Assembly (NCBI RefSeq): GCF_003018115.1
Contig: NZ_CP027457.1
DNA length: 64,000 bases
Source: Escherichia coli
GTDB lineage: Bacteria; Pseudomonadota; Gammaproteobacteria; Enterobacterales; Enterobacteriaceae
Strand: one strand, 5' to 3'
In this document: positions 4,896-62,230 of the stretch, in pieces
Position numbering within the stretch: position 1 is the first letter of the stretch
How the letters are laid out: every line of letters starts with the position of its first letter
Translations under genes and position numbers: made by a program
The notes under the pieces: generated by a model
Databases searched by the model: none
Told to the model about the DNA's origin: nothing
What the model saw: the letters and a program-made list of their open reading frames with translations, nothing else

Positions 4896-5005
4896 TATCA
4901 ATTCCTATTGGTATTACAATGAATGGATAATAGCAATGCGTATTAACCATGGCAATAGCAAAACGTGTTTTGACCATCAATACGCAAGCGTATAAATTAA
5001 AACTT
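4896..5005. promoter_or_regulatory. Immunity-region divergent promoter/operator region (OR-like), with dyad sites ATAATAGCAATGCGTATTAA (about 4927-4946) and GCAATAGCAAAACGTGTTTTG (about 4952-4972)
   Basis: Intergenic between divergent cro-like and cI-like genes; dyad-symmetric repeats sharing AATAGCAA with the OL-like region at 7530-7577. Confidence 0.45.
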
Positions 5006-5698
5006 ATGAAAAAAGAAACTCTTGCTGATCGCTTAAACCTAGCGATGGAACAATCTGGGATGTCTCAAGGCGCTCTTGCAAAGGCGTCTGGCGTAGCTCA
5101 ACCCACAATCTGGAGACTGACAAGCGGCAACGCGCGCGGCTCAACAAAAATTGTTGAAATAGCGAATGCATTGGGTGTTCGAACAGAGTGGCTCTCATCA
5201 GGCATAGGCCCGATGAGAAATGACGGTCAACAATCAGGGAAGCCTACTGTCAACCATTCCAAATACTTCAAGATTGACGTTCTTGATATAGAAGTGAGTG
5301 CCGGGCCGGGAGTCATCAACCGTGAGTTTGTAGAAGTCCTACGCTCGGTTGAGTACTCGTTTGACGATGCTCGTCACATGTTCGATGGCAGGAAGGCGGA
5401 AAATATCCGCATCATTAACGTACGTGGTGACAGCATGTCAGGAACAATCGAACCAGGTGATCTGCTGTTCGTTGATATCACGGTTAAATCTTTCGACGGT
5501 GATGGCATCTATGCGTTTCTGTACGACGACACAGCCCATGTAAAGCGCCTGCAAATGATGAAGGATAAGCTGTTGGTTATCTCTGATAACAAGAGCTACT
5601 CACCGTGGGACCCGATCGAGAAAGACGAGATGAACCGGGTGTTCATTTTTGGGAAAGTCATCGGGAGCATGCCGCAGACCTACAGGAAGCATGGGTAG
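5006..5698 (+). CDS. cI: cI-like prophage repressor (N-terminal XRE-type HTH plus C-terminal S24/LexA-like autoprotease domain)
   Basis: HTH motif GMSQGALAKASGVAQPTIWRL; C-terminal region with GDSM Ser motif (RGDSMSGTIEPGDLLFVD) and downstream Lys (HVKRLQ). Start could also be the upstream ATG at 4949 (track); 5006 leaves room for operators. Confidence 0.8.
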   Translation: MKKETLADRLNLAMEQSGMSQGALAKASGVAQPTIWRLTSGNARGSTKIVEIANALGVRTEWLSSGIGPMRNDGQQSGKPTVNHSKYFKIDVLDIEVSAGPGVINREFVEVLRSVEYSFDDARHMFDGRKAENIRIINVRGDSMSGTIEPGDLLFVDITVKSFDGDGIYAFLYDDTAHVKRLQMMKDKLLVISDNKSYSPWDPIEKDEMNRVFIFGKVIGSMPQTYRKHG

Positions 5699-5821: not shown

Positions 5822-6844
5822 ATGAAAGATAACAGACAAAAAGTCGTTCATTATAAAAAAGCAGTAATCCCACACAGCAAATCATCATTACAAAACATAC
5901 TACTTAGTATTATAGGTGAGGGCGGCGTTGCAGAAAAAGTACTTAGTAGACAAGAAAAAATAACACCTTCAGATGAAAATTCGGGGTATCGTTTCTTAAA
6001 TAAAAGCGACACATACAAAACTATACTTTTTGGGCAACTGGTTTTATTTGAAAAAGACAAAAGCCAGTCTCTATTAGAGCTTAGTGATAATGTTAAATTT
6101 TATGACATTAACTCCATCACGTCTAATGATATAATTATTGATGGAGATAAACGTAGTGACAAAAAAAGAGAGTTTGTAGATTCAATTTTATATTTTGGTG
6201 TACTAAACAACCATGTCATGATCGTTCAATCCACATCGCTTCGAGCAAGGGAGCTTGAGGCGCATTTGAATTGGCTAATTAATACATTCACAGATGAAAA
6301 AGAATCTGTGTTAATGCTTCAAGATAAGCCATCCGAAGAAACGATGAAAAAAATGGAGAAAGCACCAGCCAAGAGCATAAAAATTGGTGGATTACCCATT
6401 ACTTCAGAAGTTAAAAATTCAGAGAACCAAACACCCTCCTTTTCAAATGGTTCGGTGAAGACAATAAAATACCGCCCAATAGGGAAAGGAGGTGCGCTAC
6501 TAAAAGCATTTTTTGGCGATAACTGGGCAAATGATATAAACATTAAAGATTCATTAGATGAGGCCAATTTACAAGTAAGCCTCGAGATTACATACTTCAG
6601 AAAAACAAATGATAGCGGTCAAGCTGTTATAGACAGTATTGCTACCTCACTACGACATCTAGATGAGGATGATATTAGCATCAAACTTCAAGGCGGTGGG
6701 GAAATAACGGGAAAAGAGATAAAATTATCCGGAAAAATTAGCGTTGAACATAACAATGGCATTATTGATGAAAATGATTTATTCTTAAAAATGCATAAGT
6801 GGCTGTTCTCAAAACTTGATGCCGGAGAATTGGTTGCAAAATAA
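5822..6844 (+). CDS. Hypothetical 340-aa soluble protein, first gene of a rexA-position two-gene module (candidate phage-exclusion component)
   Basis: Long ORF in a markedly AT-rich segment immediately downstream of cI on the same strand; no family recognised by eye; no predicted TM segment. Confidence 0.6.
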   Translation: MKDNRQKVVHYKKAVIPHSKSSLQNILLSIIGEGGVAEKVLSRQEKITPSDENSGYRFLNKSDTYKTILFGQLVLFEKDKSQSLLELSDNVKFYDINSITSNDIIIDGDKRSDKKREFVDSILYFGVLNNHVMIVQSTSLRARELEAHLNWLINTFTDEKESVLMLQDKPSEETMKKMEKAPAKSIKIGGLPITSEVKNSENQTPSFSNGSVKTIKYRPIGKGGALLKAFFGDNWANDINIKDSLDEANLQVSLEITYFRKTNDSGQAVIDSIATSLRHLDEDDISIKLQGGGEITGKEIKLSGKISVEHNNGIIDENDLFLKMHKWLFSKLDAGELVAK

Positions 6845-6865: not shown

Positions 6866-7372
6866 ATGAAATCGAACATCATCCACCTTATTGGTATGTT
6901 GGTCTTCTATTTTGCTGGTTACTTTTTGTTCAAGTTAGCATTGGGCTATATTACACCGGGTGTTGTCCTAACAGCTCCGTGGGCTGTGGTTGGACTCATG
7001 CAATTGCCATTATCATATTGTATACAAGCCATTTTTAAGGCAAATGAGGCCAATGACCACTCGTCTTTAACCCCTAGTGAGGTTAGGCGATTAGTGCCAA
7101 TAGTCAAATCCAAGAGACTGAAATTGGTTTTATTATTAGCTTTCTATGTATTTTCAACTTTGTTTGTAATCTTGGGGTTAATAGCAAGCACAAATGATCA
7201 AGCCCTACTCTTCAGGGTCTTAAAAATTTCAGGTGGATTACTCTTTATTTCTCTCTATACCAGTGTATTCGTTCATAAAATAATGGTTGAGCTTCAAGAG
7301 TTTAAAGCGTTATTAAACCGAAGAGAATCAGAGAAGAAGGAAAGAGAGTCACTCCTTGATAGATTAAAATGA
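6866..7372 (+). CDS. Hypothetical 168-aa membrane protein with four predicted TM helices and a charged C-terminal tail, second gene of the rexB-position module
   Basis: Hydrophobic stretches IIHLIGMLVFYFAGYFLFKLALGYI, VVLTAPWAVVGLMQLPLSYCIQAIF, LKLVLLLAFYVFSTLFVILGLIAS and GGLLFISLYTSVFVHKIMV; RBS AAGGAGG upstream; 21-nt gap from the upstream gene. Confidence 0.6.
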   Translation: MKSNIIHLIGMLVFYFAGYFLFKLALGYITPGVVLTAPWAVVGLMQLPLSYCIQAIFKANEANDHSSLTPSEVRRLVPIVKSKRLKLVLLLAFYVFSTLFVILGLIASTNDQALLFRVLKISGGLLFISLYTSVFVHKIMVELQEFKALLNRRESEKKERESLLDRLK

Positions 7373-7381
7373 CCCCCCCTC

Positions 7382-7408
7382 CCCGGCCGTCGTGCCGGGT
7401 TTTCTTTT
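7382..7408 (+). terminator. Rho-independent terminator (stem CCCGGC/GCCGGG, loop CGTCGT, then TTTTCTTTT)
   Basis: Read directly from sequence, 10 nt after the stop of the membrane-protein gene. Confidence 0.65.
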
Positions 7409-7529
7409 GCCTCCCCTCATCACACACCGTTCAAAAAACCACCATAACCCCCGCTTCAGTTATCGCTATGCGATGCAAGTCACAAAATTAATTCCTTTTG
7501 CTATCAAACAGTTAATATCAAAATACATC

Positions 7530-7577
7530 AATCAATAGCAATAAGTATTGATATCACCAATAGCAATAGCTATTATT
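7530..7577. promoter_or_regulatory. Candidate OL-like operators / pL region: TCAATAGCAATAAGTATTGA and CCAATAGCAATAGCTATTATT
   Basis: Dyad-symmetric sites sharing the AATAGCAAT core with the OR-like region; located upstream of the N-position ORF, as OL/pL are in lambda. Confidence 0.35.
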
Positions 7578-7649
7578 ACCATGTCGCAACAACACAACGA
7601 TACGGCAACCACCTGATTCGCCGTTGCGATGACCGCTTAGATCCGCAGC

Positions 7650-8060
7650 TTGAATTTCAGCAGGCTCCGGGGAGTGCGAGGGGTGAAGCGGACGCGTGAA
7701 CGTCGGTGTGACCAGCTGAAATCAACTCAACACTTCATACCTCAGTCGCTTCAACGAGGCGGCTTAGTTATGACAACCGGCGGCCATCCACCGCCTGAAT
7801 ACGCGCAGAAGTCTCTATATGTTCAGCAGCCCAGCTTACGGGCAGGAGTTTTTATGGTTCATCAACATTACGGAACTCAGACCGTTAATCGCGGTGCCGT
7901 CCGGCCAGGTATGCTGGTTAAACACAAAGATGGTACCTGGACGGCATCAGCTAATTTGCGCGGTCGGCTTTACTTGCATCGCGGCATCGAACGAACGTAC
8001 ACAAAAGATTTGCTCGTGGAGGTTTACCTGAATGGTACTGGCGGTGGTCTGAGCCACTAA
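7650..8060 (+). CDS. Putative N-like antitermination protein (arginine-rich motif near N-terminus); start codon uncertain
   Basis: Track ORF begins at a TTG; translation contains RGVKRTRERR, resembling the lambda N arginine-rich motif (TRRRERR). Alternative starts: GTG near 7683, ATG at 7770, ATG at 7854 (the last with AGGAG 5 nt upstream). Confidence 0.35.
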   Translation: MNFSRLRGVRGVKRTRERRCDQLKSTQHFIPQSLQRGGLVMTTGGHPPPEYAQKSLYVQQPSLRAGVFMVHQHYGTQTVNRGAVRPGMLVKHKDGTWTASANLRGRLYLHRGIERTYTKDLLVEVYLNGTGGGLSH

Positions 8061-8064
8061 CTAC

Positions 8065-8370
8065 TCACTTGTTTGGGCCGTGTGGAGCCAAAGCAAATTC
8101 AAGGTTGTAGATACTCCCATCAGGGGCTTTGAAATCAACCTCAAACCGAGATGGCGGATTGAATGGATCGAGTACATTTTCTGCTACGCATGTAGATCTC
8201 CAATTGATATGGCCTTTGCCAAGCGAGCGAGATTCCCACCAAGCTCTCCAGGTCTGGTCTTGCGGTTGATCACTCCCCTTTTCCCTTACATACCAATGAT
8301 TCTTTTTCGACTGCTTACCCATTTCTGCGGTTGGGTACATCGGAGAAGACTTTAACTTATCAATCAGCAT
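8065..8370 (-). CDS. Hypothetical 101-aa protein encoded antisense to the early-left operon
   Basis: ORF on the opposite strand with AAGGTG 6 nt upstream of the ATG at 8370 (track extends to an upstream GTG at 8379); no recognisable family; no TM segment. Confidence 0.4.
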   Translation of the reverse strand: MLIDKLKSSPMYPTAEMGKQSKKNHWYVREKGSDQPQDQTWRAWWESRSLGKGHINWRSTCVAENVLDPFNPPSRFEVDFKAPDGSIYNLEFALAPHGPNK

Positions 8371-8508
8371 TCTAGACACCTTATTTATCAGATTTTGAGC
8401 AAGACATAGTGTGATCCAACATTTTGATTAATCAAGCGAGTTCATTCAAACAACTATGCAGTTAACGCACTGTCTGGATCCGCACATCAAAATTTCAGGA
8501 GTTTATCC

Positions 8509-8805
8509 ATGAACGCTTATTACATTCAGGATCGTCTTGAGGCTCAGAGCTGGGCGCGTCACTACCAGCAGATCGCCCGTGAAGAGAAAGAGGCAGAACT
8601 GGCAGACGACATGGAAAAAGGCCTGCCCCAGCACCTGTTTGAATCACTCTGCATCGATCATTTGCAACGCCACGGGGCCAGCAAAAAAGCCATTACCCGT
8701 GCGTTTGATGACGATGTTGAGTTTCAGGAGCGCATGGCAGAACACATCCGGTACATGGTTGAAACCATTGCTCACCACCAGGTTGATATTGATTCAGAGG
8801 TATAA
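8509..8805 (+). CDS. gam: Gam (RecBCD inhibitor), 98-aa form
   Basis: [60 protein letters not shown]... matches lambda Gam as recalled; AGGAG RBS. Confidence 0.95.
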
Positions 8806-8810
8806 AACGG

Positions 8811-9596
8811 ATGAGTACAGCACTCGCAACGCTGGCTGGGAAGCTGGCTGAACGTGTCGGCATGGATTCTGTCGACCCACAGGAACTGATCACCACTCTT
8901 CGCCAGACAGCATTTAAAGGCGATGCCAGCGATGCGCAGTTCATCGCATTGCTGATCGTCGCCAACCAATACGGCCTTAATCCGTGGACGAAAGAAATTT
9001 ACGCCTTCCCCGATAAGCAGAACGGCATCGTTCCGGTGGTGGGCGTTGATGGCTGGTCCCGCATCATCAACGAAAACCAGCAGTTTGACGGCATGGACTT
9101 TGAACAGGACAACGAATCCTGCACATGCCGGATTTACCGCAAAGACCGCAATCATCCGATCTGCGTTACCGAGTGGATGGATGAATGCCGCCGCGAACCA
9201 TTCAAAACCCGCGAAGGCAGAGAAATCACGGGGCCGTGGCAGTCGCATCCCAAACGGATGTTACGGCATAAAGCCATGATTCAGTGTGCCCGTCTCGCCT
9301 TCGGATTTGCTGGTATCTATGACAAGGATGAAGCCGAGCGCATTGTCGAAAATACCGCATACACTGCAGAACGTCAGCCGGAACGCGACATCACTCCGGT
9401 TAACGATGAAACCATGCAGGAGATTAACACTCTGCTGATTGCCCTGGATAAAACATGGGATGACGACTTATTGCCGCTCTGTTCCCAGATATTTCGCCGC
9501 GACATTCGCGCATCGTCAGAACTGACACAGGCCGAAGCAGTGAAAGCTCTTGGATTCCTGAAACAGAAAGCCACTGAGCAGAAGGTGGCAGCATGA
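8811..9596 (+). CDS. bet: Bet (Red-beta single-strand annealing protein), 261 aa
   Basis: Full-length match to lambda Bet as recalled ([66 protein letters not shown]...). Confidence 0.95.
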
Positions 9597-10273
9597 CACC
9601 GTACATTATCCTGCAGCGTACCGGGATCGACGTGAGAGCTGTCGAACAGGGGGATGATGCATGGCACAAATTACGGCTCGGCGTCATCACCGCTTCAGAA
9701 GTTCACAACGTGATAGCAAAGCCCCGATCAGGAAAGAAGTGGCCTGACATGAAAATGTCCTACTTCCACACCCTGCTGGCTGAGGTTTGCACCGGTGTGG
9801 CTCCGGAAGTTAATGCTAAGGCGCTGGCCTGGGGAAAACAGTACGAGAACGACGCCAGAACCCTGTTTGAATTCACTTCCGGCGTGAATATTACTGAATC
9901 CCCGATCATCTATCGCGACGAAAGTATGCGCACCGCCTGCTCTCCCGATGGTTTATGCAGTGACGGCAACGGCCTTGAACTGAAATGCCCGTTTACCTCC
10001 CGGGATTTCATGAAATTCCGGCTCGGTGGTTTCGAGGCAATAAAATCGGCTTACATGGCCCAGGTGCAGTACAGCATGTGGGTGACGCGAAAAGATGCCT
10101 GGTACTTTGCCAACTATGACCCGCGCATGAAGCGTGAAGGCCTGCATTATGTCGTGATTGAGCGGAATGAAAAGTACATGGCGAGTTTTGACGAGATGGT
10201 GCCGGAGTTCATCGAAAAAATGGACGAGGCACTGGCTGAAATTGGTTTTGTATTTGGGGAGCAATGGCGATGA
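9593..10273 (+). CDS. exo: Lambda exonuclease (Red-alpha), 226 aa
   Basis: [54 protein letters not shown]... matches lambda Exo as recalled; ATGA overlap with the bet stop. Confidence 0.95.
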
Positions 10274-10452
10274 CGCATCCTCACGATAATATCCGGGTAG
10301 GCGCGATCACTTTCGTCTACTCCGTTACAAAGCGAGGCTGGGTATTTCCCGGCCTTTCTGTTATCAGAAATCCACTGAAAGCACAGCGGCTGGCTGAGAA
10401 GATAAATAATAAACGGGAGGCGGTATGCACAAAGCATCTCCTGTTGAGTTAA
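10264..10452 (+). CDS. Small hypothetical phage protein (62 aa), lambda orf60a/orf61/orf63-position
   Basis: ORF overlapping the exo stop; position corresponds to the small orfs between exo and xis in lambda. Confidence 0.45.
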
Positions 10453-10622
10453 GAACGAGTATTGAGATGGCACATAGCCTTGCTCAAATTGGAGTCAGGT
10501 TTGTGCCAATACCAGTAGAAACAGACGAAGAATTTCATACGTTAGCCACATCCCTTTCACAAAAGCTGGAAATGATGGTGGCGAAAGCAGAAGCAGAAGC
10601 AGATGAGAGAGACCAGGTATGA
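10425..10622 (+). CDS. Small hypothetical phage protein (65 aa)
   Basis: ORF with GGGAGG-type RBS; acidic C-terminus; translationally coupled to the next ORF through an ATGA overlap. Confidence 0.5.
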   Translation: MHKASPVELRTSIEMAHSLAQIGVRFVPIPVETDEEFHTLATSLSQKLEMMVAKAEAEADERDQV

Positions 10623-10702
10623 CAACCACTGAATGCATTTTTCTGGCAGCGGGCTTCATATTCTGTGTGCTTATGCTTGCCGACATGGGGCTTGTTCAAT
10701 GA
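10619..10702 (+). CDS. Candidate 27-aa single-TM peptide (MTTTECIFLAAGFIFCVLMLADMGLVQ), below the ORF-track size cutoff
   Basis: ATG overlaps the upstream stop (ATGA) and its own stop overlaps the downstream ATG (ATGA); hydrophobic core consistent with one membrane helix. Confidence 0.35.
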   Translation: MTTTECIFLAAGFIFCVLMLADMGLVQ

Positions 10703-10914
10703 CACCTCAGCAAGAAAACGCCCTTCGCAGCATTGCCCGTCAGGCTAATTCTGAAATCAAAAAAGCCAGACAGCATTTTCCGGATAAAAACGTCGATGAC
10801 ATTTGCCGTAGCGTACTAAAGAAGCACCGCGAAACGGTAACGCTGATGGGATTCACACCGACTCATTTAAGCCTGGCGATCGGCATGTTGAACGGCGTCT
10901 TTAAGGAACGGTGA
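10699..10914 (+). CDS. Small hypothetical phage protein (71 aa from MTPQQ...)
   Basis: Internal ATG of track ORF 10633-10914, chosen because it is translationally coupled to the upstream small ORF. Confidence 0.5.
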   Translation: MTPQQENALRSIARQANSEIKKARQHFPDKNVDDICRSVLKKHRETVTLMGFTPTHLSLAIGMLNGVFKER

Positions 10915-11012
10915 ACATGAAAAGCAAAATCATCAGGGAGCTACAGGCTCCTTTTTTATTATTCGCATTTACCCTCAAGCGTATTAACCAACAATTCAGG
11001 GATTAATGAAAG

Positions 11013-11231
11013 ATGGCAGACATCATTGATTCAGCATCAGAAATCGAAGAATTACAGCGCAATACAGCAATAAAAATGCGTCGTCTGAACTACCAGACTG
11101 TATCCGCAACTCATTGTTGTGAGTGTGGCGATCCGATAGATGAGCGAAGACGCCTGGCTGTTCAGGGTTGTCGGACTTGTGCAAGTTGCCAGGAGGAGAT
11201 CGAACTTAAGAACAAACAATGGGGACTGTGA
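11013..11231 (+). CDS. TraR/DksA-family C4 zinc-finger protein (72 aa)
   Basis: CxxC...17...CxxC motif (CCECGDPIDERRRLAVQGCRTCASC) typical of TraR/DksA C4 zinc fingers; common in lambdoid early-left regions. Confidence 0.7.
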   Translation: MADIIDSASEIEELQRNTAIKMRRLNYQTVSATHCCECGDPIDERRRLAVQGCRTCASCQEEIELKNKQWGL

Positions 11232-11278
11232 TGGCCTCAAAGCAGCAAATTTCAACATCATCCAACTGAGGTGTAAAA

Positions 11279-11557
11279 ATGTTCAGAATCATTTTTCCTA
11301 ACACCTGGTACGTCGACCACCACGGCACTCCCTGCAAAATCCTGCGTTCTACCCACAACAAAGTTCACTACATCCGAAAAGGCAGAACATGTATCGCCAG
11401 CATGTTCCGCTTTAATCATGACTTTGAACCTGTGAATAAAGCTGATGCAGATCGGATAGCAGAAGAGATCGAAACGGCAGAACACATTAAGAAGTTACGT
11501 GACATGCGTTCAAAAAGCAGAGGTAACCATGGAATCATACAGCCTCACACTCGATGA
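11279..11557 (+). CDS. Hypothetical phage protein (92 aa), upstream of xis
   Basis: ORF with AGGTG-type RBS in the position occupied by ea-type accessory genes in lambda; no family recognised. Confidence 0.45.
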   Translation: MFRIIFPNTWYVDHHGTPCKILRSTHNKVHYIRKGRTCIASMFRFNHDFEPVNKADADRIAEEIETAEHIKKLRDMRSKSRGNHGIIQPHTR

Positions 11558-11900
11558 GGCCTGTCAGTTTCTTAAGATATCCAGACCAACCGCCACCAAC
11601 TGGATACGAACAGGCCGCCTACAGGCAACACGTAAAGATCCAACCAAGCCAAAATCTCCTTACCTCACAACACGGCAAGCCTGCATTGCGGCGCTTCAGT
11701 CTCCGCTGCATACTGTCCAGGTGAGCGCGGGTGATGGCATAACAGAGGAAAGAAAATGTCACTCTTCCGCAGAAATGAAATATGGTATGCCTCGTATTCG
11801 CTCCCGGGCGGGAAACGAATTAAGGAATCTCTTGGCACAAAGGACAAGCGGCAAGCTCAGGAGTTGCACGACAAGCGAAAAGCAGAACTCTGGCGAGTAG
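11529..11900 (+). CDS. xis: Excisionase-like (AlpA/Xis-type HTH) ORF; reading frame runs about 145 nt into int, so the true 3' end is uncertain
   Basis: [36 protein letters not shown] is an AlpA-like HTH; immediately upstream of the integrase. Confidence 0.45.
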
Positions 11901-12919
11901 AAAAGCTAGGGGATTTACCTGATGTCACTTTTGAAGAGGCCTGCCTAAGATGGCTTGAGGAAAAAGCTGATAAAAAATCTCTCGATTCAGATAAAAGCCG
12001 GATTGAGTTCTGGCTTGAACATTTTGAGGGTATAAGGCTTAAAGATATCTCGGAGGCAAAGATTTACTCTGCTGTAAGCAGAATGCATAACAGAAAGACG
12101 AAAGAAATATGGAAACAGAAAGTTCAGGCCGCCATCAGGAAAGGTAAAGAACCGCCTGTTTATGAACCAAAGCCAGTATCAACTCAGACAAAGGCAAAGC
12201 ATCTTGCCATGATAAAGGCCATTCTCCGTGCTGCAGAACGCGACTGGAAGTGGCTGGAAAAAGCGCCTGTCATCAAGATACCAGCGGTCAGAAACAAGCG
12301 AGTCAGATGGCTGGAAAAGGAGGAAGCAAAACGCCTTATTGATGAGTGCCCCGAACCACTGAAATCTGTCGTCAAGTTTGCGCTGGCAACTGGTCTGAGA
12401 AAGTCGAACATCATAAATCTGGAATGGCAACAAATCGACATGCAGCGACGAGTTGCCTGGGTGAATCCAGAAGAGAGCAAATCAAACCGCGCCATTGGCG
12501 TGGCGCTGAACGATACCGCCTGTAAAGTGTTGCGTGATCAAATAGGCAAGCATCACAAATGGGTGTTTGTACATACCAAGGCGGCTAAGCGAGCAGATGG
12601 AACATCAACGCCTGCGGTCAGGAAGATGCGCATCGACAGCAAGACATCATGGCTATCAGCTTGTCGTCGTGCAGGAATTGAAGATTTCCGTTTCCATGAC
12701 CTCAGACACACCTGGGCAAGCTGGCTGATTCAGTCAGGCGTCCCATTATCAGTGCTTCAGGAAATGGGCGGATGGGAGTCCATAGAAATGGTTCGTAGGT
12801 ATGCTCACCTTGCGCCTAATCATTTGACAGAGCATGCGAGGAAAATAGACGACATTTTTGGTGATAATGTCCCAAATATGTCCCACTCTGGAATTATGGA
12901 GGATATAAAGAAGGCGTAA
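11756..12919 (+). CDS. intD: Tyrosine integrase, DLP12 IntD-type (387 aa)
   Basis: Full-length match to DLP12 IntD as recalled ([46 protein letters not shown]...; C-terminal [10 protein letters not shown]...RYAHL catalytic region); stop 16 nt from the tRNA 3' end. Confidence 0.95.
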
Positions 12920-12934
12920 CTGATTGAATTGTAA

Positions 12935-13011
12935 TGGCGCGCCCTGCAGGATTCGAACCTGCGGCCCACGACTTAGAAGGTCGTTGCTCTATCCAACTGA
13001 GCTAAGGGCGC
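12935..13011 (-). tRNA. argU: tRNA-Arg (anticodon UCU)
   Basis: Reverse complement reads GCGCCCTTAGCTCAGTTGGATAGAGCAACGACCTTCTAAGTCGTGGGCCGCAGGTTCGAATCCTGCAGGGCGCGCCA; cloverleaf with TCT anticodon and encoded CCA. Confidence 0.95.
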
Positions 13012-29335: not shown

Positions 29336-31003
29336 TTATTGCAAACGTTCTAATAAACGAGCCAGTTTTTTATTGCCGCCGGCGACTGGCGACCATTGGT
29401 AATGCACAACCGGTTTGCTGGCGCTTTGTAGCTCCAGCGCAAAACTGCGTAATCCGATGTTAATCACGGCGACGTTTTCCAGTAATGACGGTGTGTGTTG
29501 CTGTGCGGCAGGCGAGAGCGGATGAATTAACGCTGCCGCCAGCAAGGTGGCTTCCGGTAGCGAACTCACGACCGCAATCCCCGCATCTTCCAGCGTGGCG
29601 ATTTGCTGCGAGCGGCATTGCGGGTCACGTTCGGTACCTGTCACCGTGGCAATGGCGTACAGCGGTTGGCTGTCTGAACGCGCGGCACAGGCTTTTTGCC
29701 AGGCGCTCACCAGCGAGGCGGCAGGATCGGCGGTCGCGCCGAAGCCAATCACGACATCAAGTAGCAATACGCGCACTGACGGTTTAGCGCCGAGATCGGC
29801 AATTAACTGGTTGCGTAAGGTTGGGTCGATCATCGGATGGGGACGCCCGACGGTGTAGAAATCATCGCCGAGGTCAATAATCTGGTGACCATCGGCGTCG
29901 AGCATCATGCCGTGATGATGGGCATCATCGGCTTCCACGCCAAGGTGTCCGGCAAGTAATCCCGCCGCTTCGGCAGCCAGCGTACCGCCGGTATACAAAC
30001 CGCAAATAAATCCGCTGCTGGCAGGCGTTATCGCGTTACGTCGCGCCGTAACGCGTGAAAGCAGGCAAGCCAGGCGTGCGGCCTCATCCAGCGAGGAGGC
30101 AAACCAGACATTCTCGTCGCGGGCCACCGCCGGGGTATAACCTAAAAACAGCGCCACCGTCGGTTTGCCGGTTGCTTTCATGGCATTAACAATTTTCAGA
30201 CGCACCGCTTCGGCAGGTGGTTTTGAAACAAATGCCAGCACTTCGCTTTTCTCGTCTGCACTGAGCATTTCCAGCGCCGTCAGCGCACTGATGCCGCCCA
30301 CTTCACGGCTGAGGTCGCGGCCGCCAAGGCCAATCGCGTGAGTAATTCCCTCCCCTGCCAGCGCAATCTGCGAGCACAGCTCCTGAATCCCGGTACCGGA
30401 AGCGCCAATGACACCAATGTTGCCTTCCGGCATCACGTTAGCAAAAGCCAGCGGCGTGCCGGCAATCATCGACGTACCGCAGTCCGGCCCCATCACCAGC
30501 AAGCCTTTTTCCCGCGCGCGGGTTTTAAGTTGGATTTCATCTTCCAGCGTGACGTTATCGGAGAACATCATCACGTTGAGGTTGCGATCCAGCGCCTGAT
30601 TCGCCAGCTCCGCCGCATACTCGCCAGCCACTGAAATCAGCGCCAGATTGGCATCGGGTAATTTCTGACAGGCACTGTCCCAGCGACGCACCTGCGTCAA
30701 CGCCTGGCTGCTGCCTGACCCCTGCGCCAGTTGTTTTAGCGCCTCTTCAAGCTGCTGCATAATCGCCTGCGCGATCCCCGCATCCGCCGCTTCGCTACGA
30801 ATTGCCACGCAAATATCGTTCGGCGTGGCGTTATTAAAATCGTCATGCCAGAAACCTGTGGTATCTAATAACGCTTTATTGGCGGGCGTACCCATCATTA
30901 CGGAAACATCATCAACATTTTCTGATTCGCTGAGTTTTCGTGAAATAATCATTAAACTGACCGAATCCTGAAAACACCCTTTTTTAATAAAGGCGTGGAT
31001 CAT
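29336..31003 (-). CDS. fdrA: FdrA (succinyl-CoA synthetase alpha-like CoA-binding protein)
   Basis: 555-aa protein with CoA-binding/ligase-like domains. Confidence 0.9.
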   Translation of the reverse strand: MIHAFIKKGCFQDSVSLMIISRKLSESENVDDVSVMMGTPANKALLDTTGFWHDDFNNATPNDICVAIRSEAADAGIAQAIMQQLEEALKQLAQGSGSSQALTQVRRWDSACQKLPDANLALISVAGEYAAELANQALDRNLNVMMFSDNVTLEDEIQLKTRAREKGLLVMGPDCGTSMIAGTPLAFANVMPEGNIGVIGASGTGIQELCSQIALAGEGITHAIGLGGRDLSREVGGISALTALEMLSADEKSEVLAFVSKPPAEAVRLKIVNAMKATGKPTVALFLGYTPAVARDENVWFASSLDEAARLACLLSRVTARRNAITPASSGFICGLYTGGTLAAEAAGLLAGHLGVEADDAHHHGMMLDADGHQIIDLGDDFYTVGRPHPMIDPTLRNQLIADLGAKPSVRVLLLDVVIGFGATADPAASLVSAWQKACAARSDSQPLYAIATVTGTERDPQCRSQQIATLEDAGIAVVSSLPEATLLAAALIHPLSPAAQQHTPSLLENVAVINIGLRSFALELQSASKPVVHYQWSPVAGGNKKLARLLERLQ

Positions 31004-31319
31004 AACAACTCCTTAAAAATTGCACCCATGGCAATTGCACGAGCAGTGTTAATGTGGCGATTACGGTATCGATGACAACGAGTAAATAAGGTGATGAATA
31101 TCACACAGGGATTATTAACAAAAGAATTCAAATAACCGCCAGACTATTACGAGTTATTTTTTAATAAGCATGGTTGTTTTAAAAACCAGGTTAAAAGCGC
31201 GAAGATTATCAAATAAATTCTAACTATATTTTTTTGCCTGTCTGGATCACATAATCCAGATATTTTCCCTGTATGTTAATTGCAGTCATGCTTCACACCG
31301 TCGTTAAAAAGGAAGACAG

Positions 31320-32369
31320 ATGAAAATCAGTCGGGAAACACTCCACCAGCTAATTGAGAATAAACTCTGCCAGGCTGGGTTAAAACGTGAGCACGCTGCA
31401 ACCGTGGCTGAAGTATTGGTGTACGCCGATGCCAGAGGGATCCACTCTCATGGCGCGGTGCGCGTGGAATACTACGCGGAACGCATTTCAAAAGGCGGCA
31501 CCAACCGCGAACCGGAGTTTCGTCTTGAGGAAACCGGGCCGTGCTCGGCAATTTTACATGCCGACAATGCCGCCGGACAGGTCGCGGCGAAAATGGGTAT
31601 GGAACATGCCATCAAAACCGCCCAGCAAAATGGCGTTGCGGTGGTCGGTATCAGCCGGATGGGTCACAGCGGCGCAATCTCTTATTTTGTGCAGCAGGCA
31701 GCCCGCGCCGGATTAATTGGCATTTCGATGTGCCAGTCCGATCCAATGGTGGTGCCGTTTGGCGGCGCGGAAATTTACTACGGTACTAACCCACTGGCCT
31801 TTGCCGCGCCGGGAGAAGGCGACGAGATCCTTACCTTTGATATGGCGACTACCGTACAGGCATGGGGAAAAGTGCTCGACGCCCGCTCGCGTAATATGTC
31901 TATCCCGGATACCTGGGCGGTCGATAAAAACGGTGCACCAACAACCGATCCGTTCGCGGTACATGCTCTGCTCCCCGCCGCTGGGCCGAAAGGGTATGGC
32001 CTGATGATGATGATTGACGTCCTCTCAGGCGTCTTACTCGGCTTACCGTTCGGGCGACAGGTTAGTTCGATGTATGACGATTTACACGCCGGGCGTAATT
32101 TGGGGCAATTACATGTAGTTATTAACCCGAACTTTTTCTCCTCCAGCGAATTATTCCGTCAACATCTTAGCCAGACCATGCGCGAATTAAATGCCATTAC
32201 CCCCGCGCCCAGTTTAAATCAGGTTTATTATCCCGGACAGGATCAGGATATTAAACAACGCAAAGCCGCCGTCGAAGGCATCGAAATTGTTGATGATATT
32301 TACCAGTATTTAATTTCCGACGCGCTTTATAACACGTCATACGAAACGAAAAATCCCTTTGCGCAATAA
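31320..32369 (+). CDS. allD: Ureidoglycolate dehydrogenase
   Basis: 349-aa Ldh_2-family protein; position in the allantoin cluster. Confidence 0.95.
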   Translation: MKISRETLHQLIENKLCQAGLKREHAATVAEVLVYADARGIHSHGAVRVEYYAERISKGGTNREPEFRLEETGPCSAILHADNAAGQVAAKMGMEHAIKTAQQNGVAVVGISRMGHSGAISYFVQQAARAGLIGISMCQSDPMVVPFGGAEIYYGTNPLAFAAPGEGDEILTFDMATTVQAWGKVLDARSRNMSIPDTWAVDKNGAPTTDPFAVHALLPAAGPKGYGLMMMIDVLSGVLLGLPFGRQVSSMYDDLHAGRNLGQLHVVINPNFFSSSELFRQHLSQTMRELNAITPAPSLNQVYYPGQDQDIKQRKAAVEGIEIVDDIYQYLISDALYNTSYETKNPFAQ

Positions 32370-32390
32370 TTATTGAGACAGGACTTTCTT

Positions 32391-33626
32391 ATGATTACAC
32401 ATTTTCGTCAAGCCATAGAAGAAGCGCTGCCCTGGCTTTCCTCATTTGGCGCTGACCCAACGGGTGGGATGACCCGTTTACTTTATTCGCCGGAATGGCT
32501 GGAAACCCAGCAGCAATTTAAAAAAAGAATGGGCGCAAGTGGGCTGGAAACACGTTTCGATGAAGTGGGGAATTTATACGGTCGCCTGAGTGGCACCGAA
32601 TATCCACAGGAAGTGGTTCTGAGCGGTTCGCATATCGATACCGTGGTTAACGGCGGTAACCTCGACGGGCAATTCGGCGCGCTGGCGGCGTGGCTGGCAA
32701 TTGACTGGCTGAAAACGCAATACGGCGCACCGCTGCGTACGGTTGAAGTGGTGGCGATGGCGGAAGAAGAAGGCAGCCGCTTCCCGTATGTTTTCTGGGG
32801 CAGTAAAAATATCTTTGGACTGGCGAATCCTGACGACGTGCGGAATATCTGTGATGCCAAAGGAAATAGTTTTGTCGATGCGATGAAGGCTTGCGGATTT
32901 ACTCTGCCGGACGCCCCGCTAACTCCGCGTCAGGATATTAAAGCCTTTGTCGAACTGCATATCGAACAGGGCTGTGTGCTGGAAAGTAATGGGCAATCAA
33001 TTGGCGTGGTGAATGCAATTGTCGGGCAACGTCGCTATACGGTGACGCTGAACGGCGAATCAAACCATGCAGGCACCACGCCGATGGGTTATCGTCGTGA
33101 TACGGTTTACGCTTTCAGTCGCATTTGCCATCAGTCGATCGAAAAAGCGAAAAAGATGGGCGACCCGCTGGTGCTGACCTTTGGTAAGGTGGAGCCGCGC
33201 CCGAATACGGTGAATGTGGTGCCGGGTAAAACCACGTTCACCATTGATTGTCGTCATACCGACGCCGCCGTGCTGCGTGATTTCACCCAACAGTTAGAAA
33301 ACGACATGCGGGCGATTTGCGATGAAATGGACATTGGTATTGATATCGATTTATGGATGGACGAAGAACCCGTGCCGATGAATAAGGACCTGGTCGCCAC
33401 CCTGACAGAATTGTGTGAAAGTGAAAAACTGAATTACCGGGTGATGCACAGTGGTGCCGGGCACGACGCGCAAATTTTCGCGCCTCGCGTGCCGACCTGC
33501 ATGATTTTCATTCCCAGCATCAACGGGATCAGCCATAACCCGGCGGAACGCACCAATATTACCGACCTTGCCGAAGGGGTCAAAACGTTGGCACTCATGC
33601 TTTATCAACTTGCCTGGCAGAAATAA
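32391..33626 (+). CDS. allC: Allantoate amidohydrolase (M20 peptidase family)
   Basis: Translation from MITHFRQAIEEALPWL... matches AllC as recalled. Confidence 0.9.
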   Translation: MITHFRQAIEEALPWLSSFGADPTGGMTRLLYSPEWLETQQQFKKRMGASGLETRFDEVGNLYGRLSGTEYPQEVVLSGSHIDTVVNGGNLDGQFGALAAWLAIDWLKTQYGAPLRTVEVVAMAEEEGSRFPYVFWGSKNIFGLANPDDVRNICDAKGNSFVDAMKACGFTLPDAPLTPRQDIKAFVELHIEQGCVLESNGQSIGVVNAIVGQRRYTVTLNGESNHAGTTPMGYRRDTVYAFSRICHQSIEKAKKMGDPLVLTFGKVEPRPNTVNVVPGKTTFTIDCRHTDAAVLRDFTQQLENDMRAICDEMDIGIDIDLWMDEEPVPMNKDLVATLTELCESEKLNYRVMHSGAGHDAQIFAPRVPTCMIFIPSINGISHNPAERTNITDLAEGVKTLALMLYQLAWQK

Positions 33627-34422: not shown

Positions 34423-34464
34423 GTCATACCACTCGCCTGATTATTTTTAGCTATGTTGGATTTT

Positions 34465-34491
34465 GCCACGGTTTATACCGTGGCTTTTTTT
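34465..34491 (+). terminator. Rho-independent terminator after allE (GCCACGG-TTTATA-CCGTGGC then T7)
   Basis: GC-rich hairpin followed by TTTTTTT, read directly. Confidence 0.7.
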
Positions 34492-34499
34492 GTAACATT

Positions 34500-34605
34500 G
34501 CCTGATGCGCTTCGCTTATCAGGCCTACATGATCTCTGCAATATATAGAATTTGCGCGATTTTCAGGAAGGATATAGTACTCATGCCGCATCCGGCATGA
34601 GTACT
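34500..34605. repeat. REP-type palindromic elements, including the perfect 13-bp-arm palindrome AGTACTCATGCCG-CATC-CGGCATGAGTACT
   Basis: REP-like GCCTGATGCG...ATCAGGC unit and perfect inverted repeat between convergent allE and glxK. Confidence 0.55.

Positions 34606-62086: not shown

Positions 62087-62230
<144 letters not shown>

Follow-up and report, generated by a model that had tools for sequence, protein, structure and literature searches.

An orthologue of lambda orf73, predicted to encode a TraR-type RNA polymerase factor, in a lambdoid prophage at argU of Escherichia coli

The question at this locus is whether a very small prophage gene of Escherichia coli encodes a factor that binds in the secondary channel of the host RNA polymerase and reprogrammes host transcription, as the original prediction proposed. 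The DNA analysed (the window) is a stretch of 64,000 nucleotides from contig NZ_CP027457.1 of assembly GCF_003018115.1, and all positions refer to it unless lambda is named. The gene, here called the orf73-like gene, was found on the plus strand at 11013..11231, exactly where and exactly as long as had been predicted. Its reading frame is intact, with ATG at 11013, 72 sense codons and TGA at 11229-11231 and without any frameshift or internal stop, and the translation is MADIIDSASEIEELQRNTAIKMRRLNYQTVSATHCCECGDPIDERRRLAVQGCRTCASCQEEIELKNKQWGL. By family, motifs and fold, the 72-aa product is a putative TraR-type RNA polymerase secondary-channel factor. TraR in this text always means TraR of the F plasmid, not the LuxR-type quorum-sensing TraR of Agrobacterium.

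Profile searches placed the protein among the prokaryotic dksA/traR C4 zinc fingers. Pfam PF01258 (zf-dskA_traR) matched with 37.3 bits (E 2.8e-9), above its gathering cut-off of 24.9 bits, PHROG_54 (“DksA-like zinc-finger protein”) matched residues 1-70 with E 3.6e-26, and the only PDB sequences that matched at E <0.01 were E. coli YbiI and F-plasmid TraR (5w1s, 6n57). The NCBIfam model of the TraR subfamily, TIGR02419, aligned residues 3-64 with its full length (model positions 1-64 of 64) at 53.9 bits (E 2e-14), which is below its cut-off of 59.7. This score was calibrated with two reference proteins: TraR scored 80.5 and was above the cut-off, and lambda Orf73 scored 54.7 and was also below. 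The missed cut-off was rejected as an argument against membership, because the validated lambda Orf73 misses the same cut-off; the threshold leaves out the whole Orf73 clade and is no evidence against function. None of the NCBIfam DksA models matched the protein. The predicted assignment to the TraR/DksA type was right for the family and could be narrowed: judged by its sequence, the protein belongs to the short, ppGpp-independent TraR subfamily and not to DksA proper. E. coli DksA and YbiI share with it the PF01258 zinc-finger domain and the logic of secondary-channel binding, but DksA has about 150 aa, a coiled-coil tip and a dependence on ppGpp, whereas the orf73-like protein has 72 aa and a single N-terminal helix.

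The gene is widespread. Relatives of the protein were found by tblastn in 514 phage records, and of 5426 complete E. coli genomes, 3347 contained DNA that matched a 401-nt query spanning the gene; there RefSeq names the gene “TraR/DksA family transcriptional regulator”. A tblastn search of the window with the orf73-like protein and with TraR returned only 11013-11228 and no second TraR-like gene.

The protein is 100% identical to the product of an ORF of Shigella phage SfI and 86% identical to that of a 73-codon ORF of lambda, which lies on the minus strand between ea22 and orf61 (30396-30614). This lambda ORF is unannotated in NC_001416 and is the one named Orf73 in the literature (PMC9239242; PMC8614690). 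From orf63 through about codon 62 of the orf73-like gene the DNA aligns collinearly with that of lambda and is about 95% identical to it, and in codons 1-62 there are 12 codons that differ from lambda, 7 of them synonymously. The matches in Pfam, PHROG_54 and the PDB, together with the identity to lambda Orf73 and the synonymous codon changes, argue that this is not a chance ORF, and on this sequence comparison we regard the gene as the orthologue of lambda orf73. The likeness to lambda Orf73 (alias Orf2310; 73 aa against 72 here) extends to the DxxDxA motif, all six cysteines, the ExxRL motif and R46/R47, which are identical. It also extends to the surroundings: both genes follow orf61 within the exo-xis block, and upstream of both there is the same hairpin and nearly the same small ORF.

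The two loci differ at the end of the gene and beyond. The homology stops after codon 62 or so, and the last approximately 10 residues are EEIELKNKQWGL here and EDLELISKQRGSK in lambda. Both the tail and the downstream neighbour, a DUF4222 gene in the prophage and ea22 in lambda, differ because of a mosaic junction, at which the homology ends within the 3' part of the gene. The tail of the orf73-like protein is of the majority type in a family alignment of 28 sequences. By analogy with TraR, in which the C-terminal helix contacts beta Si1, the tail difference would count against full equivalence with lambda Orf73. The prophage also differs from lambda in its immunity region, where cro and cII are of the YdaS/YdaT type, and in that no N gene was recognised.

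The published hallmarks of TraR are an N-terminal DxxDxA motif that reaches the active site of RNA polymerase, a CxxC-17-CxxC zinc site, the equivalents of R48/R49, which lie inside an ExxR(K/L) motif and touch the rim helices and beta' Si3, and a helix at the C-terminus whose acidic residue touches beta Si1 (PMC9239242; PMC8614690). As far as sequence can tell, the orf73-like protein has all of them. The acidic tip residues, which had been singled out beforehand as the decisive point, are present as M-A-D3-I-I-D6-S-A8; they align with D3/D6/A8 of TraR, and D3, D6 and A8 are invariant in the 28-sequence alignment (which includes TraR and lambda Orf73), as are C35, C56 and E64. The zinc ligands C35, C38, C56 and C59 align with the TraR cysteines and form a CxxC-17-CxxC site with exactly 17 residues between the pairs. 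The C4 zinc finger of the original prediction was therefore found, but the cysteines number six and not four, with C36 and C53 beyond the C4 set as in lambda Orf73. R46/R47 are at least 90% conserved in the same alignment and correspond to the RR pair of TraR; they stand in E44-R-R46-R47-L48, the ExxRL motif shared with lambda Orf73. The C-terminal helix carries E61/E62/E64. The protein is thus like TraR (5W1S, 6N57) in its three-part architecture, size, D3/D6/A8, four zinc cysteines, RR pair and acidic residue of the C-terminal helix, but it is only 31% identical to TraR and has two additional cysteines, and its gene belongs to a phage early operon, whereas traR lies in the tra operon of a conjugative plasmid.

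An AlphaFold2 model, made with the 28-sequence alignment as input, had a mean pLDDT of 79.5 and predicted helices at 8-27, 44-49 and 57-70 and no coiled coil. The pLDDT was above 90 over the zinc domain and the C-terminal helix and 57-72 over the N-terminal third. Foldseek against the PDB gave TraR in its RNA polymerase complex (6n57_M) as the best match, with probability 1.00, TM 0.55, 71 aligned columns and an rmsd of 4.6 Å, followed by YbiI, TraR 5w1s and DksA/DksA2 structures. Free models of Orf73 and bound TraR have been reported to differ in their helix angles (PMC8614690), and the modest TM and the 4.6 Å rmsd of our model would match this difference.

The generic annotation as a transcriptional regulator, together with the zinc finger, is all that points to a sequence-specific DNA-binding regulator of phage genes. 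The predicted fold resembles TraR, YbiI and DksA and not DNA-binding fingers; TraR and DksA work through RNA polymerase and bind no DNA, and the lambda lytic promoters tested were unaffected by Orf73 (PMC9239242). We consider a DNA-binding regulator hardly credible.

The activity of an Orf73 protein is known from lambda Orf73 itself, which was characterised in 2022 by biochemistry and genetics (PMC9239242). The purified lambda protein binds RNA polymerase. In vitro its inhibition of rrnB P1 and rpsT P2 was as efficient as that by TraR; the two promoters were also inhibited in vivo, and Orf73 complemented a dksA deletion (PMC9239242). Synthesis of the rRNA precursor went down to 29% with Orf73 expressed from pL and about 14-fold with Orf73 expressed from a plasmid, and the growth of the host was slowed (PMC9239242). 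After mitomycin C induction the phage yield was 3-4 fold higher with Orf73; the D3A/D6A double mutant yielded as little phage as the deletion mutant, and motif substitutions lowered activity (PMC9239242). Unlike TraR, lambda Orf73 activated the tested host promoters weakly if at all, for which its two extra cysteines might account according to the authors (PMC9239242). The same class of activity has been demonstrated for P2 Orf82, VHML Orf8, VP882 Orf61 and X. bovienii Gp34, which are of the same family and more distant in sequence (PMC9239242). By analogy with a protein that is 86% identical, the predicted secondary-channel binding and reprogramming of host transcription may well be expected here, since both were demonstrated experimentally for lambda Orf73 (PMC9239242). 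The further suggestion of a likely host-takeover factor agrees with the role published for the lambda orthologue and is, for that very reason, no new hypothesis.

We consider it very probable that the orf73 orthologue in this argU prophage works by the mechanism of lambda Orf73 and TraR. It is by far the likeliest mechanism because 86% of the residues are identical and every functional residue is retained. The protein would fold into an N-terminal helix, a zinc-binding globular domain and a C-terminal helix and would bind the host RNA polymerase without DNA binding, as F-plasmid TraR does. The N-terminal helix would enter the secondary channel and bring D3/D6 of the DxxDxA motif near the active site, R46/R47 would meet the polymerase at its rim helices and at beta' Si3, and the C-terminal helix would meet it at beta Si1. 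In this way the protein would mimic DksA plus ppGpp without needing ppGpp, and it would inhibit promoters with short-lived open complexes, those of rRNA and ribosomal proteins, so that host growth would be slowed and resources diverted to phage production. For the binding to RNA polymerase, the promoter effects and the benefit to phage yield we infer from the experiments on lambda Orf73 and TraR.

The published phenotypes of lambda orf73 mutants are in conflict about what this activity is for, with a yield-raising role (PMC9239242) on one side and a pro-lysogenic role with lower yield on the other, the latter from assays of the Wegrzyn group summarised in a review (PMC8614690). In those assays, deletion of orf73 in lambda and in Stx phages lowered post-infection survival and lysogenisation, and the gene was classed as pro-lysogenic (PMC8614690). 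The orf73-like protein could then have the same activity on RNA polymerase and serve to bias infection to lysogeny and host survival instead of lytic yield, a reading to which we give a minor but real chance. The discrepancy is acknowledged in PMC9239242, where the in-frame deletion and D3A/D6A both cut the yield 3-4 fold after induction, in constructs that avoid polar effects. The pro-lysogenic and lytic roles are also compatible, infection and induction being different.

The targets of lambda Orf73 touch on another possible role, in which the main function would be to block the initiation of host DNA replication (“bin”, lambda orf73-ea22-ea8.5-orf55), for example through lower dnaA expression. 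Earlier work, cited in PMC9239242, tied orf73 and three adjoining genes to inhibition of replication initiation, and dnaA P2 was inhibited by lambda Orf73 in vitro with an IC50 of about 420 nM (PMC9239242). However, Orf73 from a single-copy prophage lowered dnaA mRNA little or not at all (PMC9239242), and in the prophage studied here the “bin” partners ea22, ea8.5 and orf55 are replaced by the DUF4222 gene. A replication block as the main function is in our view improbable.

The mechanism of lambda Orf73 and TraR would operate only where the gene is expressed, and the prophage around it was analysed for this. On the minus strand the gene order is ybcK, ylcJ, emrE, ren, P, O, a cII-like gene (YdaT-type) and a cro-like gene (YdaS-type). 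The plus strand carries the gene of a cI-like repressor, two genes without known function, a pL-like promoter, kil, gam, bet and exo, and then orf60a (DUF1317), orf63 (DUF1382), orf61, a 31-codon ORF, the orf73 homologue, the DUF4222 gene, a xis-like gene and int. The integrase gene (11756-12919) abuts tRNA-Arg(TCT) at 12935-13011, which is followed by fimZ and the sfm genes; the insertion site is argU, the DLP12 site. This order of cI ... exo ... xis, int and tRNA bears out both the prophage origin and the early-left position that had been predicted. The position of orf73 in the pL operon, after exo-orf60a-orf63-orf61 and before xis/int, is the same in lambda, in phage 4A7 and in E. coli VG35A2. 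The gene order recurs in the record of phage 4A7 (genus Bievrevirus), and the host element of orf73 is a lambdoid, Bievrevirus-like prophage. Its early region is complete (cI, cro, cII-like, O, P, kil, gam, bet, exo, xis-like, int).

Directly past ren, at 1-2071 on the minus strand, are emrE (an SMR efflux pump gene), ylcJ and ybcK. We take it that these genes are also found beyond ren in the cryptic DLP12 of K-12, and that DLP12 of K-12, unlike the prophage here, presumably has no complete early region. The prophage is a fuller relative of DLP12. At this site it may be defective; its right arm lies beyond the window.

Several other genes of the prophage are described here in their own right. 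The orf61 gene (10633-10914, plus strand) is full-length, with 93 aa and a match to PHROG 303. The orf61 of lambda codes for 61 aa, as one additional A in an A6/A7 run shifts the frame; the run lies at about 10771-10776 here, and the truncation of lambda Orf61 has already been reported (PMC8614690). An excisionase-like ORF at 11499-11900 (plus strand; PHROG 2907, E 4e-46; Pfam HTH_17) overlaps the annotated start of intD by about 145 nt, and in the near-identical locus of E. coli VG35A2 PGAP calls just a 66-nt HTH pseudogene fragment there. Between kil and gam, opposite the pL operon, a 104-aa ORF on the minus strand (8065-8379) matches PHROG 16212 (unknown function) with E 1e-69 and is a hypothetical protein in RefSeq; it is likely a moron, because it is missing at the matching position of phage 4A7.

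Right after the cI-like repressor gene, in the rexA/rexB position, are two plus-strand genes at 5822-6844 and 6866-7372. The product of the first has 340 aa and is apparently soluble, with no evident hydrophobic segments, and that of the second has 168 aa and several hydrophobic segments. They match PHROGs 3482 and 16807, to which no function is assigned, and neither product had a Pfam, PADLOC or PDB match. An identity with RexA/RexB was rejected, as there was no similarity. Phage 4A7 has another pair in this position (a hypothetical protein and an ASCH domain protein), so the slot after cI holds variable cargo, and the pair found here is a candidate exclusion or defence system expressed in the lysogen. 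In the chromosomal part of the window, and unrelated to orf73, Rfam gave gathering-level matches to a tandem of STnc480 and ES036 (CssrF) at 34429-34563 (minus strand) and to naRNA4 (CssrE) at 62137-62214 (plus strand).

The transcript that reaches orf73 probably starts far upstream. A promoter scan of the plus strand found a putative pL-like sigma-70 promoter (TTGATA-17-TATTAT) at 7548..7576, and no promoter-like site of orf73 itself on the plus strand from 10000 to 11013. Two copies of CAATAGCAATAG overlap the pL-like promoter. The rest of the window has seven other approximate matches to this sequence, 4 of the 7 in the cI-cro intergenic region at 4899-4964, a distribution that looks like that of OL and OR operators. 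This pattern suggests that pL is under repressor control and that orf73 is silent in the lysogen; the cI-like repressor (4949..5698, plus strand; the PGAP start by homologue is 5005) would silence the pL operon and orf73 with it. From the gene order and these promoter-like and operator-like sequences, we infer that orf73 would be co-transcribed with kil, gam, bet and exo from this repressor-controlled leftward early promoter. It follows that the protein would act after prophage induction or infection and not in the stable lysogen.

Terminator-like structures lie just before and along this route. The scan found a strong hairpin on the plus strand at 7382-7399, which closes the cI operon just before the pL-like promoter. 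Between exo and orf73, a second strong terminator-like hairpin lies inside orf60a at 10334..10356 (plus strand; dG -19.3 kcal/mol, z -4.3). This hairpin probably corresponds to lambda tL3, which we take to be carried by the lambda 31088-33241 fragment of pKD46; a search of the literature for coordinates of tL3 gave nothing usable. A third hairpin at 10935..10953 (plus strand), found by scan and shuffles, resembles an intrinsic terminator, with an 8-bp stem and a 3-nt loop followed by UUUUUUAUUAUU; its dG is -10.2 kcal/mol (z -4.1), and 0 of 200 shuffles were as good. It lies upstream of orf73, 60 nt from the start codon, in a stretch where the aligned lambda sequence is identical, and inside the 31-codon ORF (10911..11006, plus strand; GTG at 10911, in-frame ATG at 10917), which stops 6 nt before the orf73 ATG. 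The phage 4A7 record lists this ORF as a CDS, and possibly it is the 31-aa lambda peptide seen by ribosome profiling (PMC8614690).

The leader from the pL-like promoter to the Kil-family ORF is about 270 nt long (the Kil match starts near 7827, and the RefSeq homologue is at 7853-8059). In lambda, N antitermination takes transcription through such terminator sites. Within the ORF at 7650-8060 only the C-terminal approximately 76 residues match a family, and this family is Kil, the sole match in 7577-8060. The ORF was tried as an N-type antiterminator and rejected, as it has no Pfam, PHROG or BLASTP similarity to lambda N. Upstream of kil in the same frame, an arginine-rich run (KRTRERR) is faintly reminiscent of the N ARM and has no family match. 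HK022-type put RNA was not recognised, as the pL and pR leaders showed no similarity to the HK022 early region; an Rfam search of 7300-11300 gave no match at E≤1, and the fold of the pL leader was no better than that of shuffles (z -0.14).

Such a layout might suggest that orf73 is intact but an inert passenger, untranscribed behind the upstream terminators in a defective DLP12-type prophage that has no antiterminator. The insertion at argU next to emrE and ybcK resembles cryptic DLP12, the gene is preceded by two terminator-like hairpins, and neither N nor put was recognised. However, nothing is missing from the early region, and the reading frame is free of frameshifts and stops. The phage records 4A7, Turner, PhiR34_1 and 2G7b share either the layout without N or the block itself at 97-99.5% identity; the layout without a recognisable N is that of phage 4A7. 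We therefore think an inert passenger unlikely and favour an orf73 that would be expressed and would have the activity of its lambda orthologue. Of everything at this locus, only the read-through past two hairpins without a recognisable N or put is mildly novel. It would be a long shot that it reflects an undescribed antitermination device in the approximately 270-nt pL leader, serving orf73, xis and int, or that the KNKQWGL tail shifts the set of affected promoters.

The gene is already known, both from its RefSeq family annotation and from the experiments on the lambda orthologue (PMC9239242). This orf73 homologue is one of the ordinary genes of the exo-xis block, which is conserved in lambdoid phages, and adds little to what is known of it, and the locus makes no open question newly testable. 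Related copies are found in Stx-converting phages, whose exo-xis genes are linked to the efficiency of induction. The locus helps the annotation of the prophage, and by analogy with lambda it marks an RNA-polymerase-reprogramming factor that would be expected to act on induction.
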